Of a stretch of 64,000 nt of DNA, positions 1 through 8,931 are shown piece after piece. Source of the DNA: Shigella phage ESh28; the sequence record ON528738; one strand, given 5' to 3'. Under the pieces are notes generated by a model. That model was given only the letters and a program-made list of their open reading frames with translations. It made no database searches and was not told the origin of the DNA. The position numbers and the translations under genes are program-made. The number at the start of each line of letters is the position of its first letter. Positions within the stretch are counted from its first letter, which is position 1.

Positions 1-1121
1 ACCTTGGATATCATCATGGTGAAAACTCTGCGCAAGACGCAGGTGCTTTGATGGCTAACACTTGGAATAATAACTTTCCTCTGTTAGATGGTCAAGGAAA
101 CTTCGGTTCTCGTACTGTCCAAAAGGCAGCGGCAAGTCGTTATATTTTTGCTCGTGTAAGTAAAAATTTCTATAACGTATATAAAGATACTGAATATGCT
201 CCGGTACATCAAGATAAAGAACACATTCCGCCTGCTTTCTATTTGCCTATTATTCCTACTGTTCTTCTTAATGGTGTTTCCGGTATTGCAACTGGTTATG
301 CAACTTACATTCTTCCTCATAGTGTTTCTTCTGTCAAGAAAGCTGTACTACAAGCTCTTCAAGGAAAGAAAGTAACTAAACCGAAGGTAGAATTCCCAGA
401 ATTTCGCGGTGAAGTCGTTGAAATTGACGGTCAATATGAAATTCGTGGAACATATAAGTTTACTTCACGAACTCAAATGCATATCACTGAGATTCCATAT
501 AAGTATGATCGTGAAACTTATGTGAGTAAAATCTTAGACCCGCTTGAAGATAAAGGCTTCATTACATGGGATGATGCTTGTGGTGAGCATGGCTTTGGCT
601 TTAAAGTTAAATTCCGCAAAGAATATGCTTTGAGCGATAACGAAGAAGAACGTCACGCGAAAATTATGAAAGACTTTGGGTTGATTGAGCGTCGTTCCCA
701 AAATATTACAGTCATCAACGAGAAAGGAAAGCTACAAGTTTACGATAACGTAGTTGATTTAATTAAAGACTTTGTTGAAGTTCGTAAAACTTATGTCCAA
801 AAACGAATTGATAACAAAATCAAAGAAACTGAATCAGCATTTTGTTTAGCCTTTGCCAAGGCACATTTCATTAAGAAAGTAATTTCAGGTGAAATTGTTG
901 TGCAGGGTAAAACTCGCAAAGAACTGACCGAAGAACTTTCTAAAATTGATATGTATTCTTCTTATGTTGATAAACTAGTTGGAATGAACATTTTTCATAT
1001 GACTTCCGACGAAGCAAAGAAACTTGCTGAAGAAGCTAAAGCTAAGAAAGAAGAAAACGAATATTGGAAAACTACTGATGTAGTTACCGAATACACCAAA
1101 GATTTAGAGGAAATCAAATGA
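1..1121 (+). CDS. 52: DNA topoisomerase II medium subunit gp52, 5'-truncated by the window edge (frame begins at nt 3)
   Basis: Frame open from nt 3 to TGA 1119-1121; GyrA-like motifs YHHGE and DGQGNFGSR; recalled T4 gp52 sequence; track start 48 is a TTG inside the gene. Confidence 0.85.
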   Translation, partial: LGYHHGENSAQDAGALMANTWNNNFPLLDGQGNFGSRTVQKAAASRYIFARVSKNFYNVYKDTEYAPVHQDKEHIPPAFYLPIIPTVLLNGVSGIATGYATYILPHSVSSVKKAVLQALQGKKVTKPKVEFPEFRGEVVEIDGQYEIRGTYKFTSRTQMHITEIPYKYDRETYVSKILDPLEDKGFITWDDACGEHGFGFKVKFRKEYALSDNEEERHAKIMKDFGLIERRSQNITVINEKGKLQVYDNVVDLIKDFVEVRKTYVQKRIDNKIKETESAFCLAFAKAHFIKKVISGEIVVQGKTRKELTEELSKIDMYSSYVDKLVGMNIFHMTSDEAKKLAEEAKAKKEENEYWKTTDVVTEYTKDLEEIK

Positions 1122-1267
1122 GTCCATTCATAGGCATTACAAGCGCTGCATTAGTATCCGGTGGCATTTTACTGGCGGGTTTAGGTGTTGTTCCAGCCGT
1201 AGCAGGAGGTCTTCTTGCGTTCGGCATTCAACGTGTTATCATGACAGTTATCACAGTCATGCAGTAA
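1118..1267 (+). CDS. hypothetical 49-aa hydrophobic membrane peptide
   Basis: ATG overlaps gene 52 stop (ATGA); SD-like GAGG at 1107-1110; product MSPFIGITSAALVSGGILLAGLGVVPAVAGGLLAFGIQRVIMTVITVMQ is one predicted TM helix; below track length cut-off, found by hand. Confidence 0.35.
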   Translation: MSPFIGITSAALVSGGILLAGLGVVPAVAGGLLAFGIQRVIMTVITVMQ

Positions 1268-1272
1268 TTTTA

Positions 1273-1298
1273 GGGAGAGCCTCGGCTCTCCCTTTTTT
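1273..1298 (+). terminator. intrinsic terminator after gene 52 / small ORF
   Basis: GGGAGAGCC-TC-GGCTCTCCC stem-loop followed by TTTTTT. Confidence 0.7.
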
Positions 1299-1322
1299 AT
1301 TTTAAATTTTTTTCACAAAACG

Positions 1323-1352
1323 GTTTACAACCAAAGCATACTGTGGTACTAT
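1323..1352 (+). promoter_or_regulatory. early-type promoter (-35 GTTTAC, -10 TACTAT)
   Basis: GTTTAC 1323-1328, 18-nt spacer, TACTAT 1347-1352; AT-rich upstream; near-identical copy at 17993-18022. Confidence 0.55.
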
Positions 1353-1401
1353 ACAACTATCAAATAAATGAACTGAAACAAACAACCCGGAGATACAAAA
1401 A

Positions 1402-1629
1402 ATGAAATTTAAAATCGAAAACGAAATCGTTAAAGCTAAAAATGCTCTGACTGCTAACAAACTGGTTGTAGATGGTATTGAATATGATATCTGTGGAGTT
1501 CGTGAAGAAAAACCTGGTGTTCTGACTTTCTTCACAATGATTTTTAAATTTAAAGGTGACACAGAATTCAAACAGTTTGATTTTGCCCATGAAGACGAAA
1601 TCGAAGTTCGTAATCTGAACATTAAGTAA
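1402..1629 (+). CDS. hypothetical protein (75 aa)
   Basis: ATG start with upstream CCGGAG; sits downstream of an early-type promoter. Confidence 0.45.
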   Translation: MKFKIENEIVKAKNALTANKLVVDGIEYDICGVREEKPGVLTFFTMIFKFKGDTEFKQFDFAHEDEIEVRNLNIK

Positions 1630-1668
1630 GTACTTTATTAGAGCTCTTGAAAAAGAGTGCAAAAAAGT

Positions 1669-1697
1669 GTTTACTTCTGCTTTAAACATGATACTAT
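1669..1697 (+). promoter_or_regulatory. early-type promoter upstream of motA
   Basis: GTTTAC 1669-1674, 17-nt spacer, TACTAT 1692-1697. Confidence 0.55.
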
Positions 1698-1734
1698 AGA
1701 CCTATCAAATAAATGAACTGAAACGGAGATTAAA

Positions 1735-2370
1735 ATGTCTAAAGTAACTTACATCATCAAAGCTTCTAACGATGTTCTGAATGAAAAAACTGCTGCGATT
1801 TTAATTACCATTGCTAAGAAAGATTTCATTACAGCCGCAGAAGTTCGTGAGGTGCATCCAGATTTAGGTAACGCAGTAGTTAATAGTAATATTGGGGTAT
1901 TGATTAAAAAAGGCCTGGTGGAGAAATCTGGTGATGGATTAATCATTACTGGTGAAGCTCAGGATATTATTTCAAATGCGGCAACTTTATATGCACAGGA
2001 AAATGCTCCTGAACTACTGAAAAAACGAGCAACTCGTAAAGCTCGTGAGATTACTTCCGATATGGAAGAAGATAAAGACCTTATGCTAAAACTTTTAGAT
2101 GAAAATGGATTTGTTCTTAAAAAGGTTGAAACTTACCGCAGTAACTATCTTGCTATTTTAGAAAAACGCACTCACGGAATTCGTAATTTTGAAATTAATA
2201 ACAATGGAAATATGCGAATTTTTGGATACAAAATGATGGAACACCATATTCAGAAATTTACTGATATTGGAATGTCATGTAAAATCGCTAAAAACGGCAA
2301 TGTGTATCTTGACATTAAACGCTCGGCAGAAAACATTGAAGCAGTAATCACCGTAGCATCTGAACTGTGA
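1735..2370 (+). CDS. motA: MotA, activator of middle-period transcription
   Basis: 211 aa, starts MSKVTYIIKASNDVLNEKTAAILITIAKKDF; matches recalled T4 MotA; SD GGAG upstream. Confidence 0.85.
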   Translation: MSKVTYIIKASNDVLNEKTAAILITIAKKDFITAAEVREVHPDLGNAVVNSNIGVLIKKGLVEKSGDGLIITGEAQDIISNAATLYAQENAPELLKKRATRKAREITSDMEEDKDLMLKLLDENGFVLKKVETYRSNYLAILEKRTHGIRNFEINNNGNMRIFGYKMMEHHIQKFTDIGMSCKIAKNGNVYLDIKRSAENIEAVITVASEL

Positions 2371-2380
2371 GGAATAAATA

Positions 2381-2710
2381 ATGAACAAGTTAGAAATTGT
2401 TAATGAACTTCGTCGTTGTGCAGAACCCACTCAAGAGGGGTGGGATATCTGGTATCATGGAGCTTATCTTGGAACTATCGTAAAGATTAAGACTGGTAAA
2501 TACATGATTATTCGTGAAAGTAAAGATGCTCCAGTAGGTATTCGCAATAATTTTATGGCGGCGATAAGTTCATTTACGGATGCAGCTTACGAAATTTACC
2601 TTGCTGATTATAAAGAATTCCAGGAATCTCAACCAGTTATTCGCTCAATTGGTGTTAACAAAGCTCAACAGAAAACTTTGTGGCAGCGTATTAAAGGATG
2701 GTTTAAATGA
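2381..2710 (+). CDS. hypothetical protein (109 aa), motA.1 position
   Basis: ATG with GAGGA SD; synteny only. Confidence 0.45.
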
Positions 2711-3168
2711 ACCCATTTATTAATCGTTTAAAAATGCTGAATGTTCCTTTATGTCGTGAAACTCCAGAAAGTCTTGTTGAAAAATTTAAAGCGCATGGTT
2801 ATAAATGCACAGAAGAAGATATTCTAAAAGAAGTTCCTGAAATCTGTTGGCAGACCGCATACTGGGATGAAAACCAAAAGTATCAACGACGAATTGTTTG
2901 TGCCGCCAACCGTTTTAAATTAAAAGATGGACGAACTCTTGTTATTCCAGGTGCTCGTCATTATTCTAAAGATATGGCAGAAGTTTTAGATGTAGTTAAA
3001 CCTCAATTAGTTACTCAGCAAGTTTGTGATGATGACCAAGGGTTTATTGACCAATATAGTAATTATTGGACACGTGAAGAAGCAATGATTATTGCAACTT
3101 ATGCTGGACAAGTGCGTATTGAACGTGGTGGTAGTGAAAAAGAACTTTACTCTGAGGACCTTTACTAA
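2707..3168 (+). CDS. hypothetical protein (153 aa)
   Basis: ATG overlapping upstream stop (translational coupling); no family recognised. Confidence 0.5.
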
Positions 3169-3464
3169 TGAATATTAAAAAGTTTCAAATTGATGGAATT
3201 ATGAATCAAATCCAGGCATTAGAATATGCCAATAAAATGATGTCAACTAATTGGGGAATTTATGCCAATGAACCGGCATTTCAGTTCTGTAATATGGAAT
3301 TCACCAAAAAGCTCGTAGGAAAAGATTATGTGTGTCCATTTAGTTCTCCAATAAATGGAATGCTAAAACCTGCTTTACGCGATCTTTATATTGCGATGAA
3401 CGAAGAAATGATAAAAGAACTAAAACGTCAACTGAAGGTGATTCAATTTGGCCAGGGAAATTAA
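3168..3464 (+). CDS. hypothetical protein (98 aa)
   Basis: ATG at 3168 overlapping upstream stop. Confidence 0.45.
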   Translation: MNIKKFQIDGIMNQIQALEYANKMMSTNWGIYANEPAFQFCNMEFTKKLVGKDYVCPFSSPINGMLKPALRDLYIAMNEEMIKELKRQLKVIQFGQGN

Positions 3465-3666
3465 TTCAAAATCCGATTATTTTAACTCTCTCAATGATAA
3501 AGATAAAAATCTAATACGGCATTTTATTGTTGAGATGGGATATACTGACACACGTGATTTAAGAGAACATATATTTGAATGTGGTGTAGCTAAAAAGTTT
3601 TCATTCACATGCAAATGTTTAAGAGAGGTAATTCAGCACTATGAACAATTTAGTCGCAAAACATAA
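3448..3666 (+). CDS. hypothetical protein; start uncertain (track start is TTG; first in-frame ATG at 3535)
   Basis: ORF from track; overlaps preceding ORF; no convincing SD. Confidence 0.25.
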   Translation: MAREINSKSDYFNSLNDKDKNLIRHFIVEMGYTDTRDLREHIFECGVAKKFSFTCKCLREVIQHYEQFSRKT

Positions 3667-3749
3667 TTTTAATAAAGCTTCTGTCCATAAAGATAAGAAG
3701 AAAGCGTTTAAAGAATCTAATCGCAAACAGAAACATAAGGGGAAGGTCT

Positions 3750-4028
3750 ATGATTATTGATTCTCAATCTGTGGTTCAATATACAATCAAAATTGATATT
3801 CTAGAAAAGCTATATAAGCTTCTACCAAATTTATACCACTCAATTGTTAATGAATTAGTTGAAGAATTACATCTCGAGAATAATGATTTCTTGGTTGGAA
3901 CTTATAAAGACCTCTCAAAAGCAGGATATTTTTACGTAATTCCAGCTCCAGGAAAAAGTATTGATGATGTATTAAAAACTATAATGATTTATGTCCATGA
4001 TTACGAAATTGAAGATTATTTTGAATGA
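3750..4028 (+). CDS. arn: probable Arn, anti-restriction (McrBC inhibitor) DNA-mimic protein
   Basis: 92 aa, acidic, MIIDSQSVVQYTIKIDILEKLYK...; recalled as T4 Arn; position between motA and asiA. Confidence 0.5.
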   Translation: MIIDSQSVVQYTIKIDILEKLYKLLPNLYHSIVNELVEELHLENNDFLVGTYKDLSKAGYFYVIPAPGKSIDDVLKTIMIYVHDYEIEDYFE

Positions 4029-4177
4029 GTCATAATCTTGAAAAGGTAATCGAGCATAATGTAGCTCAGGAACGTGAGTCGTTCAAGGAATTCGTAGAAA
4101 AAATTTTTGAAGAAAATAACACAGACCAGTTTACAAATCAAGTGTCTGATGATATTATAATAAAGTCAACTAATTGA
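4025..4177 (+). CDS. hypothetical 50-aa protein (asiA.1 position)
   Basis: ATG overlaps arn stop (ATGA); below track cut-off, found by hand. Confidence 0.3.
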   Translation: MSHNLEKVIEHNVAQERESFKEFVEKIFEENNTDQFTNQVSDDIIIKSTN

Positions 4178-4189
4178 GTGGTATAGTTA

Positions 4190-4462
4190 ATGAATAAAAA
4201 CATTGATACAGTTCGTGAAATTATTACTGTTGCGTCTATTTTGATTAAATTTTCCAGAGAAGATATTGTTGAGAATCGTGCTATTTTTATCGCATTTCTG
4301 AATGAGATTGGAGTAACGCATGAAGGTAGAAAGTTAAATCAGAATTCATTCCGTAAAATTGTTTCTGAATTAACTCAAGAAGATAAGAAAACCCTCATCG
4401 ACGAATTCAACGAGGGTTTTGAGGGTGTATATCGATATCTAGAGATGTATACAAACAAATAA
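4190..4462 (+). CDS. asiA: AsiA anti-sigma-70 factor
   Basis: 90 aa, MNKNIDTVREIITVASILIKFSREDIVENRAIFIAFLNEIGV...; matches recalled T4 AsiA. Confidence 0.85.
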   Translation: MNKNIDTVREIITVASILIKFSREDIVENRAIFIAFLNEIGVTHEGRKLNQNSFRKIVSELTQEDKKTLIDEFNEGFEGVYRYLEMYTNK

Positions 4463-5119
4463 TTATTTAGCCCTTCCTAATATTCTGGCCGCCTGAGAAC
4501 ATATTGATTCAAGGCGGTCATTACTTATATGATCATTTCTATACCAGTACATGGTTATTGTTCCAGCATAGATATTATCCAAATTAAAATATGGACAACT
4601 GTACATGTAGTTTATTTCGGGAGTAGGCTTTTTAGTTGGTAAAAAAGCAAATTTTGAGTTGGAATAATAATGACGTCCATTTAAATGAACTATATATTCA
4701 TCCATAGTTTTATCGACAGGATATCCTCCAAGTGATTTTTCACTTATTGTTGAAGGTAATTTTCCTTCATATGCTATAATATCAACAAAATAGTTTAAGT
4801 TTTTAGGGCGGAAAGAATACACCGCACTAAAGTCTGCCTCAGATGATATATGAACTATCTGGAGTTGTTCCAGGGCGACAGATTCAAAGCGTGCATTTCT
4901 TTCCTTTTCAATAATTTCACTGTATGTTTCATACTTTGATTGCTTATAGTACTCAAAGAAACTATCTCCCCTATACCAAACAATCGCCATCATAAATAAA
5001 AGAATTACGACAGCTACCCGGGAAGCAAGAACCTTCCCAGTAGCGTTATCTTTGAACAAGCGATCTAGAACACCAAACAGAATACCAGAGGGCGAAAATG
5101 ATATTCTAGGTGCTGCCAT
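4463..5119 (-). CDS. t: holin T
   Basis: 218 aa with N-terminal TM segment; matches recalled T4 holin; SD AAGGAGGG upstream on minus strand. Confidence 0.85.
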   Translation of the reverse strand: MAAPRISFSPSGILFGVLDRLFKDNATGKVLASRVAVVILLFMMAIVWYRGDSFFEYYKQSKYETYSEIIEKERNARFESVALEQLQIVHISSEADFSAVYSFRPKNLNYFVDIIAYEGKLPSTISEKSLGGYPVDKTMDEYIVHLNGRHYYSNSKFAFLPTKKPTPEINYMYSCPYFNLDNIYAGTITMYWYRNDHISNDRLESICSQAARILGRAK

Positions 5120-5149
5120 AGACCCTCCTTTTAAGGGTATTTATTCACA

Positions 5150-5950
5150 TTATACTCTTGGTCCGTAAATTGTTCCAACAACACCCCAAGTTGGAGAAGA
5201 TCCAAACACTGCATGACCAGACGCACCACCAACACCAACTTTAAGAACTTTACCGCCGTCAGACCATGCATTCTGACCAGCAGCACCAGCATTACCACCA
5301 GCGCCGGAGTGTGCGTTACCATAGTCATAACCACCACCCGGACCTTCATACGAAGCAGCACCACCGGAATAACCGCCACCGCCAGCGCCACCGAAAGGTC
5401 GACCACCACCGCCACCGATATCTTGCCAGTTTGCCCCTGAGTGTGGACGATATGCAATACCACCACCGCCGCCACCGCCAGCAGCTATAACACCGTAGTT
5501 CCAAATACGAAGCCGTCCACCGATATCATTTTGAATAACATGACCGCCTTGTGTACCGTTACCGTCGCCTCCTGAGTGAGTGTATCCACCATTACCACCA
5601 CGACCCCACATATGAACACCACCATGAATATTAAGAACAACATATTCATTAGGCGTATCCCCGTACATGAAGAATAAAGGAACATCTTTAGAATATGATA
5701 CTAAATCACCTGTAATATTAAACACTATAGGTGCACTACCGGCCTCAAAACATCTATCTCGGAACCATTGACCATTGAAGTTATGGTCTGCTCCAAGTGT
5801 ATGAATAATTTCTCGTGAGCGACCTGCAAATTGACTCATCCAGCAAGGAACACCCAATCTTAATTGACCAGCCGCTTGACTCATCCATCGTTGCCCTGTT
5901 TCATTTGCGGCTGAACTTCCAATCCAACCAGGAACACCAACTACTGCCAT
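5150..5950 (-). CDS. 38: gp38 receptor-recognising adhesin, T2-type with glycine-rich motifs
   Basis: 266 aa with poly-Gly runs (GGGGGGG, GGGGG); N-terminus [13 protein letters not shown] like T2/T6-type gp38 rather than the T4 chaperone-type gp38. Confidence 0.8.
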
Positions 5951-5963
5951 AATTTATCTCCAA

Positions 5964-5980
5964 AGGGGGCGTTGCCCCCT
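5964..5980 (-). other. intercistronic RNA hairpin between gene 37 stop and gene 38 SD
   Basis: AGGGGGC-GTT-GCCCCCT inverted repeat immediately before the gene 38 SD on the minus strand. Confidence 0.5.
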
Positions 5981-5985
5981 TGTTG

Positions 5986-8931
5986 TTAGAATTTAAAATA
6001 TTTACTAATTTTGCGAGCAATTTTAGTAAAGAAAGGAGTTTTCAATTCTTTAATTTCTTCACTCATTTCCTGAATAGCCTTAATTAAAAGAGCATTCACA
6101 GCAGAGTTAGAAATTGTCAGAACATCAGATCCATCAACTTCAACTTTAGATACAGCTTCCGGTAATTCCTTTTCAAGGTCCTGAGCAATAATACCAACTT
6201 CACGTTTAATAACGCTACGGTCTTTAATAGACTTAACTTTATCGTAAATATAAACTTTCAGTCGGCATACTTTTTCAAGTGCTCCGTTTTCTAACTCTTC
6301 TTTATTAATCTTAAGACGATCATCAGAACGAATATAAACATCGTTAAAGTTGCCATTGGAAGGACAGTAGAAAGTTCCGTCATGATGGAACTCAAATATA
6401 GCTTGAGGATGACCAGCATCAGGAGAAGCCTCCGTGGATCCGACACGAATGATTGCTTGCCCCCACTGTGTTGGAACACGACGCATACCAAAGTCAACAG
6501 CGGTGCTATATCCTTGATTGGTTATAACGCTTCTTGCTTTAAGAATAGGATAATAACTATCTTGACCAACATAACCATGATCAACGAATAATGGAGCTTC
6601 TACTCGCCATTGGTTGCCCCAATCACCCGGTTGTCTAGCAATCCATCCAGAACCGTTAATGCGTACACGATCGCGGTTAACGTTAACCATTGCGGTATTT
6701 TGTGGATTTAGCGAAATCTCACCATTGTTTGTGATATGTACTGCCGCCTGAGTAGCATAGCTATAAAATGCTAGCGAATTATCAGCACCACCCTTGCCAA
6801 TATACCAGTTACCAGTCCCGTCTATGTCACCGCGAATATGCAAAGAATTACTAGCAGTTGTTGATAATACAATAGAATCATTAGGTGCATTGATTGTTAA
6901 CCGACCTGTCATCGTATCACCGCCTTTACCTACGCGAGTATTCAAGGCAGCATCTAAATTTGTCGCATTGTTATATTTCTTCCAGATTGAACCGGCAATA
7001 TTACCATCTGTATTAAGGAACGCATCACCGACATATACACGCCCTGGAGATTTAAAATAACCTGACGGCATGAAAGTCCATTGTTTTAACCCATCTGCTG
7101 TTCCATTAGCGGATAAATCACCCTGAGCAATGATCTTATATTCGGATGTACCTATAGCCATACCAGTGGCAAAGGTGATATTACTTACAGTATTTTTCTG
7201 TTTAACAATTGGCGCAAACTGGTTTTTATTTGAATCGTCAATGGCCTGATATAATGGTGCAATGGTAGTATTCTGATTCGCGTAAGTATTAGAACCAGAA
7301 CCGCTAGCAGGGGCTTGAATATATGCTCCTGGAGCAAGTGAAATTTTCTGATTAGCACCAAGATTAACAGCAGCAGTGATATTCAACAATCCCCTAAAGT
7401 TTTGTTGAGCAGTCCAAGTATGTGATCCGTCTTCAAGAACAACACGGTGAACTGTGCAAGTTCTATTTCCAGAATTACCGAACACACGAACGACAAAATA
7501 ACGGTAGTTTGTCTGGGATACAGTACCACGCCAAACCTGAACAGTACGTCCTGTGCTGGTGTGTTCGCTAGGACCGACAGAAAACATAACCAAGTTTCCG
7601 TCAATCGTCCCCCAATCCATATTTGCTGGCATATTCTTTATTTTGTTCAAAGGAACGCTAAACATACTACCAGGGACAAAATCAAAGGTTTGCCAATCTA
7701 GCTCCGCTAATTGGGCTTTAATACCACCCATACCCAAAGTAATTGGCAAAGAGTAAGATGTATATACTTCGTTCCATGCACCCCACACACCACCAGTATA
7801 TGCACGCTCAAAAATACGATCGCGAGTAGTTGCACCCGTTCCGGCAGTAGTAAATTTTTGGAAAATAGCACCGCCAGAAGCACGTTGTTTAACTTCCAGC
7901 AAACCAACAATAACAGTCGGCAAACCTTCACCTGTAGGACAGTTAATAACGGCATCAGTGCCTAAAATATTATATAACCCAGGGGTTTTAAAATCATTCA
8001 GATCTCCGTCATAGAAAGTCGCTGGTGTGCCATGACCAACCTGCTTCCATTCCTCCCACTTAGGTGCACTAGCATCCCATGCAGCAGCGAGACAACGAGT
8101 ATAAACCATACCCATGCGGGTAGTATAACGCTGAGTTCTCGTGTATAAACCACCTTCAAATATTTCTAAAAATCCTTGTGCGGCTGATCCTTCTTCTGGA
8201 TAATGGCGATCAAATGATGCGATTGCGCTTGAACTGTTTCGCCATAAGCCACAATGTTTTAATTCTCCCAAGCTATCAAGGTCAATCGTTTGTGAAAGTG
8301 GACGAGTTGACGCTTGAACATTACGCCACACACCCCATGGACCATCGACGCCATTCCATTTAGCAGATAAGGAACGAATATAGACGTTACCAGATCTTAC
8401 AGTATAACGCTGAGTGCCAGCAAATTGGCCGGCCACAAATACTTCTAGAACACCTACAGCATTTTCTTCTGGAAATTTATTTGCTGGTTGCGCATTTGTT
8501 GAAGTAGATTTCGACCAAACACCAAGATATTCTTCAATGGGCCCATACGTATCTAAATTAGCATCAGTAGGTAATTCGCCATTATTTTTTATAAATGTTG
8601 TGCTATTGACATTTATGTCAGATGGAGTTAAGGTAATGTCCTTTGACCCATCAAAAGATATACCATTAATTTTCCTAGGTGTTTGCAATTTAGTAGCTGT
8701 GCTAGAATTTCCAATTAAAGTTCCAGTTATATTTTCTGTAACCTCTAAAGACCCATTTATAGTTCCTCCATATTTTAAACCTAATTCTATAACACTACCT
8801 GAGTCATCTTTTGTGAAAATTGTTTTATCTTTTAAGTTTATAGCCAATTCACCTTCGGCTAATACTGAAGCAGCAGGACGTTGACCTGCAGTTTTGCTTC
8901 TTTTAAATTGTATTTGTTTTAAAGTAGCCAT
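5986..8931 (-). CDS. 37: gp37 long tail fibre distal subunit with C-terminal intramolecular-chaperone domain
   Basis: 981 aa; N-terminus [43 protein letters not shown]; C-terminal ~110 aa resembles a self-cleaving chaperone (S74-like) domain. Confidence 0.85.

Follow-up and report, generated by a model that had tools for sequence, protein, structure and literature searches.

The analysed window is a 64,000-nucleotide (nt) stretch of Shigella phage ESh28 (sequence record ON528738) and features, at positions 2381-4177 of its plus strand, a compact cluster of small genes between motA, encoding the activator of middle transcription, and asiA, encoding the anti-sigma-70 factor. We identify this cluster with high confidence as the arn operon, a polycistronic unit of T2/T4-like coliphages of the genus Tequatrovirus that carries the anti-restriction gene arn, and nothing in the data contradicts this identification. 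The operon is already known and our additions are at the annotation level: the cluster has seven genes rather than six, including a long form of arn.1 and an intact arn.4, and the Arn.3 family is described here in its scale and conservation. An earlier note on this DNA, made from the sequence alone, had placed six short open reading frames (ORFs) between motA and asiA, and this location is borne out by the Pfam matches of the upstream gene (1735-2370, plus strand; MotA_activ, E=4.7e-61, and MotCF, E=2.6e-67; phrog_1345) and the downstream gene (4190-4462, plus strand; AsiA, E=4.2e-42).

The assignment to Tequatrovirus is based on the window being 98-100% identical to deposited T2/T4-like phages. 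Bases 1300-4600 match Escherichia phage MLP2 over their full length at 98.3% identity, phage vB_EcoM_P8 is 100% identical over a 401-nt sub-stretch, and the block is kept at 80% coverage or more in 476 phage records. The gene order arn.4-arn.3-arn.2-arn.1-arn-asiA.1 is common to T4, T2 and phage fFiEco06, with motA and asiA flanking it, and the T4 and T2 operons further resemble that of ESh28 in their gene junctions, in a nucleotide identity of 96-98%, and in having a site complementary to the host small RNA (sRNA) ArcZ and a GCAUU motif at the positions described for T2. The differences concern gene content: arn.4 is intact here with 109 amino acids (aa), but in T4 its start codon is mutated and in T2 a 2-bp deletion shifts its frame; comparative data argue for a 72-aa arn.1 and for a 39-aa gene between arn.1 and arn, neither of which is annotated in T4; and ESh28 has an extra 75-aa ORF between motA.1 and motA.

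All six ORFs listed in the earlier note are present, and they are not chance frames, since each has a PHROG family match at E<=1e-37 and the block is conserved across the 476 records; a seventh gene, the 39-aa frame at 3641-3760, had however been missed. From the motA stop to the asiA start all junctions are overlapping or separated by gaps of at most 12 nt, and the interval 2381-4177 includes no non-coding bases at all. The translational coupling proposed earlier for several of these genes is confirmed by the junctions, which are ATGA between arn.4 and arn.3 as well as between arn and asiA.1, TAATG between arn.3 and arn.2, and overlaps of 17 nt (arn.2/arn.1), 26 nt (arn.1 and the 39-aa gene, here called orf39) and 11 nt (orf39/arn). 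Motifs resembling a Shine-Dalgarno (SD) sequence precede every start in the cluster except that of asiA.1, which overlaps arn by ATGA. No terminator-like site was found on the plus strand between motA and asiA, and an Rfam scan of positions 1-8000 gave no credible RNA family. The best promoter-like match within 1100-4700, a sigma-70-like TTTACA-17-TATTAT with TG that agrees with the consensus at 10/12 positions, resides inside asiA.1 (4130-4158, plus strand) and is positioned to drive asiA. The simple MotA-box middle promoter pattern TGCTTNA-N10-14-TANNNT had no match in 1100-4700, so that the promoter or promoters of the operon were not located. For T2, the five arn genes have been described as one abundant middle transcript (bioRxiv 10.64898/2026.06.19.733364).

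The gene arn (3750-4028, plus strand) lies directly upstream of asiA.1 and asiA, as it does in T4, T2 and fFiEco06, and encodes a 92-aa acidic protein with an isoelectric point (pI) of 4.55 and 16 D/E against 7 K/R residues. The earlier note had named this ORF as Arn, the DNA-mimic inhibitor of McrBC, and the identification was correct: besides the matching composition and position, the product hits the Pfam family DM_Arn (PF22134) with 177.4 bits (cut-off 26; E=6.7e-53) and, in a phmmer search, the solved T4 Arn of PDB entry 3WX4 (chain A; 'Anti-restriction endonuclease') over residues 1-92, with 88/92 positions identical (E=9.8e-55). From this 96% identity, the ESh28 allele would be expected to form the same dimeric DNA-mimic structure. 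In DNA-mimic anti-restriction proteins such as T7 Ocr and ArdA, an acidic surface imitates the DNA backbone and occupies the DNA-binding site of the nuclease. Arn is alike in this respect, but has no sequence relationship to Ocr or ArdA, whose targets are type I restriction-modification and BREX systems as opposed to the type IV enzyme McrBC. The allele differs from T4 Arn in carrying I13, L24, V49 and S70, and the last of these (codon 70, positions 3957-3959) is the T2-type residue. As a DNA mimic, Arn is known to block McrBC and, in addition, to bind H-NS (Ho et al. 2014, via PMC12871103). The PUA-Cal-HAD defence system has been reported to be inhibited by T4 Arn as well, with the T2-type substitution N70S abolishing this inhibition (PMC12871103, a 2026 preprint), and given its S70 the ESh28 allele is predicted to inhibit McrBC but not PUA-Cal-HAD, like T2 Arn.

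With regard to the 153-aa ORF and the other uncharacterised products, the earlier note saw no recognisable family, which holds only in part: named families do exist, namely PF26092 (T4_Y16D), PF26821 (Phage_T4_Y16F) and PF26819 (Phage_T4_Y16C) together with phrog_839, phrog_1594 and phrog_1844, but all of them are placeholders of unknown function. The 153-aa ORF is arn.3 (2707-3168, plus strand; phrog_839, E=3.9e-74), an ortholog of the founding member of T4_Y16D, with its membership in PF26092 taken from the phrog_839 match and from the precomputed PF26092 assignment of all 156 homologs, not from a direct score. What can be added to this family is its extent, a core of about 95 aa in which the invariant residues are enzyme-like, and a weak structural link to polyvalent proteins. 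When 1.84 billion representative proteins were searched with the Arn.3 profile, 3373 clusters matched at E<=0.001, of which 1391 reached E<=1e-10; the majority are proteins of 90-140 aa that match residues 55-152, and some are 200-434 aa long with the domain at the C-terminus. The conserved core spans approximately residues 55-153. Among 146 distant members, A66, A67, R84, H85, Q111, G112 and F113, as well as D115, R123, A126, Q135, L147, S149 and E150, are 94-100% conserved, giving the near-universal motifs R-H, QGF-D, R, Q and SE-LY. Conservation of this kind is usual where a protein binds a ligand or has its catalytic site, and Arn.3 may accordingly represent a small enzyme or a ligand-binding domain.

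Structure prediction, which had been proposed earlier as a check on the 153-aa and 98-aa products, was applied to Arn.3 and to the 109-aa Arn.4 and gave confident AlphaFold models for both, with a predicted local distance difference test (pLDDT) score of 89 for Arn.3 and 83 for Arn.4. Foldseek hits of the Arn.3 model among predicted viral structures (BFVD) were mostly uncharacterised phage proteins from many host genera, and included three 'large polyvalent protein associated domain-containing' proteins at weak scores (E=1.6e-3 to 2.2e-2; template modelling score about 0.36). Arn.3 has no match to a large polyvalent protein-associated domain (LPD) in Pfam, ten of the longer proteins carrying the Arn.3 domain (225-434 aa) have no Pfam domain and offer no functional clue, and the genomic neighbours of distant homologs are small unannotated genes that are equally uninformative as to function. 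Searching PDB sequences with the Arn.3 profile (hmmsearch) gave chance matches to eL18 only (E about 1), and a Pfam hit to Prok-E2_B (E=0.068) was far under the cut-off and was disregarded.

The full-length arn.4 (2381-2710, plus strand; PF26821; phrog_1594, E=2.5e-54) opens the cluster, and its AlphaFold model comprises a helix, a five-stranded sheet and further helices. Across 55 homologs, most invariant positions are held by the N-terminal 41 residues. The T4 copy has its start codon changed from ATG to ATA and the T2 copy a 2-bp deletion near 2459, and as a result both references annotate a 68-aa remnant only; the 109-aa gene is the ancestral form. The gene is intact in ESh28 and in wild isolates, and the lesions of T4 and T2 are independent and both located in the conserved N-terminal part (2381-2503), which points to selection on arn.4 having been relaxed or negative while these phages were propagated in the laboratory. 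The 98-aa product of arn.2 (3168-3464, plus strand; Phage_T4_Y16C; phrog_1844, E=1.8e-50) retrieved only close relatives in a word-based search (n=23, mostly more than 90% identical), and diverged orthologs are recognisable in VR7, a Mosigvirus, NC-G and a Yersinia phage. The same phages have orthologs of asiA.1 (4025-4177, plus strand; phrog_3762, E=3.3e-37), which encodes a 50-aa acidic protein with a conserved N-terminal MSHNLE and which, in genera without arn, directly follows orf39. A Pfam hit of AsiA.1 to Thr_dehydrat_C (E=0.013) was likewise far under the cut-off and was set aside.

The seventh gene, orf39 (RB32ORF249c-like; 3641-3760, plus strand), overlaps with both its neighbours, arn.1 at its end and arn at its beginning, and encodes a 39-aa highly basic micro-protein with a pI of 10.2. 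It matches DUF7230 (PF23876) with 44.9 bits against a cut-off of 27 (E=1.2e-11), as do 7/7 orthologs, and phrog_1359 (E=5e-23). It is annotated as RB32ORF249c in some genomes, as a hypothetical protein in T2 and not at all in the T4 reference, where the unannotated copy translates to an identical peptide. Conservation of the peptide extends over seven Tevenvirinae genera (20 residues are invariant in an alignment of seven sequences), and the gene is the part of the interval that can still be aligned at the DNA level in the most distant phages. Among close relatives, 4/4 polymorphisms within it are synonymous in its own frame. With 1218 phage records in a tblastn search versus 484 for Arn, orf39 is the most widely conserved element of the interval. 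No paralogs were found within the window. A similarity between the K/R-rich segments led us to consider an ArfA-like ribosome-rescue peptide, but hhalign against ArfA gave a probability of 0.4% over 7 columns, and there was no PDB sequence match and no Pfam ArfA match at E<=10. Automatic gene calls on three near-identical contigs left out arn.1 in both its forms, and in one of them also orf39; overlapping genes are thus easily lost from annotations.

Comparison across genera separates a conserved set of genes from arn itself. The backbone arn.4-arn.3-arn.2-(arn.1)-orf39-asiA.1 is common to several Tevenvirinae genera, and Arn is confined to close relatives of T4 and T2, with all of the 484 tblastn records being at least 90% identical. 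Located between orf39 and asiA.1, the arn slot is empty in VR7, NC-G and a Yersinia phage, and on this comparative evidence arn is cargo within a backbone conserved across genera. In the Mosigvirus vB_Eco_mar005P1 the slot is taken by a different protein, likewise acidic, of 99 aa (locus positions 2792-3091). This protein may belong to phrog_8202, a second PHROG to which ESh28 Arn has a weak match (E=6e-4), and could hence be a distant analogue of Arn. In many GenBank and UniRef entries, arn.1-arn.4 are labelled 'anti-restriction nuclease', a name for which this analysis saw no supporting evidence and which looks like name propagation from the gene names.

The arn.1 gene is also the site of a proposed regulatory mechanism. 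In the model published for T2 (bioRxiv 10.64898/2026.06.19.733364), positions 3465-3534 are treated as a 70-nt intergenic region, with an ArcZ pairing site just upstream, at +285 to +294 of arn.2, and GCAUU as an RNase E motif 11 nt ahead of the arn.1 ATG; the ArcZ site reportedly shields the mRNA against RNase E. Both elements are found in ESh28. The ArcZ site CCAGGGAAAT (3452-3461, plus strand; arn.2 +285 to +294) is the exact complement of the ArcZ seed AUUUCCCUGG and occurs once in the 64 kb as against 0.10 occurrences expected, and GCATT, the reported RNase E motif, is located at 3519-3523 on the plus strand, 11 nt upstream of ATG 3535. The ArcZ sequence was checked with Rfam RF00081 on an E. 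coli locus, and pairing is reported here from the exact 10-nt complement only. An RNAduplex scan of ArcZ against the operon was not discriminating, as 50/300 shuffles were as good and better scores were obtained at other sites. In VR7 and the Mosigvirus, conservation of the ArcZ site is lacking. The G of GCATT varies to A in relatives via the synonymous Arg codons CGG, CGA and AGA.

The start of arn.1 determines how these elements are to be read. The references of T4 (NC_000866) and T2 (NC_054931) annotate a 43-aa gene from an in-frame ATG at 3535, the reporter data of the T2 preprint were interpreted on that model, and in many cases gene callers predict neither form. We argue instead that arn.1 is a 72-aa gene starting from TTG 3448 (3448-3666, plus strand), which matches phrog_4452 over its full length (E=4.9e-39). 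This TTG has an SD-like AAGGTG at 3435-3440, 7 nt upstream, whereas ATG 3535 is preceded by an adjacent GAG alone. At the protein level, the 29 additional codons are conserved in VR7 (Gaprivervirus), a Mosigvirus and the Klebsiella phage phiKp_22 (Jiaodavirus), and the residue aligned to the supposed start Met of T4 is a Leu in both VR7 and phiKp_22. Among seven Tequatrovirus sequences, 7/7 variable sites within 3465-3534 are synonymous in the arn.1 frame, whereas 6/7 are non-synonymous or stop-creating in each of the other two frames, and the ratio of non-synonymous to synonymous substitutions (dN/dS) against the Mosigvirus is as low in the extension (0.12) as in the annotated part (0.15). 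The stretch thus behaves as coding sequence under protein-level purifying selection in the arn.1 frame, at odds with an intergenic status of the 70 nt between arn.2 and arn.1, and we consider it very improbable that the short gene and a non-coding stretch with an RNase E site are the correct description. Under the long model the ArcZ site corresponds to codons 2-5 of arn.1 and the RNase E motif to codons 24-26. Since the ArcZ site resides in a stretch that in Tequatrovirus is doubly coding, its invariance alone is no proof of selection for pairing.

The same conservation bears on what the small genes other than arn are for. The view that they are decaying or spurious frames without function in a hypervariable region could draw on the arn.4 lesions carried by each of the laboratory phages T4 and T2, on the differing gene content of the interval among genera, and on a knock-down screen of T4 in which asiA.1, arn and arn.1-4 were all 'Not Fit', i.e. 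had no fitness effect (PMC11879866 supplement), with the caveats that arn.4 of T4 is already defective and that guide design followed the short model of arn.1. Against it stand strong protein conservation across genera with invariant residues, substitutions biased towards synonymous changes (dN/dS 0.12-0.15), confident AlphaFold models and an Arn.3 family spanning 3373 sequence clusters, and this view, to which we give next to no credence, is effectively refuted by the conservation data. The earlier note had named homology to housekeeping phage proteins and absent expression as what would speak against host-takeover or anti-restriction functions in this region; no homology to housekeeping proteins was found, and T2 RNA is reported to be abundant from arn.4 through arn (bioRxiv 10.64898/2026.06.19.733364). 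Dispensability, early or middle expression, linkage to Arn and variable cargo favour conditional roles of the uncharacterised genes in counter-defence or host takeover, and such roles appear to us the most fitting interpretation. We tentatively extend this to a joint reading, which we regard as possible but, taken as a whole, rather unlikely to hold: Arn.3 would be an unrecognised small enzyme or signal-binding domain, distributed over thousands of phage lineages and some polyvalent proteins; together with Arn.4, Arn.2, the 72-aa Arn.1 and orf39 it would constitute a general counter-defence or takeover module; and ArcZ would act at the initiation region of the long arn.1 (codons 2-5) through arn.2/arn.1 coupling, and not at an untranslated spacer.

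Several results weigh against the counter-defence interpretation. The backbone is also present in genera lacking Arn and so need not be linked to McrBC; searches with PADLOC and NCBIfam gave only sub-threshold noise, and no functional Pfam match was found for the backbone genes; and the models of Arn.3 and Arn.4 had no neighbour among solved structures in the PDB (Foldseek, nothing at E<=0.001; best E=0.16 and 0.75, respectively) and gave no lead to a function. The backbone could instead belong to the MotA/AsiA host-takeover programme, for example as modulators of RNA polymerase, the ribosome or RNA metabolism, with Arn as an unrelated insertion after which the genes were named. This would fit the narrow distribution of arn, the retention of the position between motA and asiA without arn in VR7, NC-G, Yersinia phage fHe-Yen9-01 and Klebsiella phage phiKp_22, and the far wider occurrence of orf39, whose Lys/Arg-rich composition is typical of nucleic-acid or ribosome binders, as well as the apparent name propagation behind the 'anti-restriction nuclease' labels. 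However, no transcription or translation factor homologous to the backbone products was found, a test of orf39 as an ArfA-like peptide gave no support, and the lack of a knock-down fitness effect in T4 is more typical of conditional counter-defence, even if takeover factors with a fine-tuning role would still be compatible with it. We judge a backbone dedicated to takeover and separate from anti-restriction to be conceivable, though doubtful.

The surroundings of the operon also differ among T-even phages. The 75-aa ORF between motA.1 and motA (1402-1629; phrog_10955, E=1e-48) is preceded by a strong terminator at 1272-1293 and, at 1324-1352, by a promoter-like site of its own (TTTACA-17-TACTAT), and has the look of a small insertion of the moron type. 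It is present in fFiEco06, whereas in T4, T2 and several metagenomic relatives only about 127 nt separate motA.1 from motA. Beyond asiA, the minus strand encodes the holin gene t followed by genes 38 and 37. Gene 38 (5150-5950, minus strand) specifies a T2-type glycine-rich adhesin of 266 aa with GGGG runs, unlike T4, which carries a tail-fibre assembly chaperone (183 aa) at this position. The 3' end of asiA holds, within its coding sequence, a 14-bp hairpin that is followed by a T-rich tract in the minus-strand reading (4388-4420). This element comes directly after the convergent gene t and is probably its terminator, embedded in asiA.

Taken as a working model, the seven genes arn.4, arn.3, arn.2, arn.1, orf39, arn and asiA.1 would be expressed as one plus-strand unit downstream of motA, with the translation of neighbouring genes coupled through their overlapping stop and start codons. 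At the arn.2/arn.1 junction, the mRNA presents the 10-nt site complementary to the host sRNA ArcZ. Arn, as a small acidic dimer, would occupy the DNA-binding surface of the host McrBC, in addition to binding H-NS, and would in this way protect phage DNA whose hydroxymethylcytosine is not yet, or never, glucosylated. The other six products are conserved accessory proteins, dispensable in laboratory hosts, which most likely act in the same early phase of host takeover or counter-defence. Within this model, the gene identities, the coupling, the conservation, the purifying selection and the presence of the ArcZ site were established here, and the mechanism of Arn, the regulation by ArcZ and the dispensability come from published work.

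The arn locus is textbook T-even biology and its identification in ESh28 is in itself nothing new, but the five to six genes residing beside this well-known anti-restriction gene are still functionally blank after 40 years. Among them is Arn.3, the founder of a very large domain family that extends across phages, shows enzyme-like conservation and lacks a relative of solved structure. At this locus the T4 and T2 references give a misleading picture, as arn.4 is crippled in both, arn.1 is too short and the 39-aa gene is missing in T4, and these faults affect both the design and interpretation of knock-down screens and the interpretation of the ArcZ/RNase E model.

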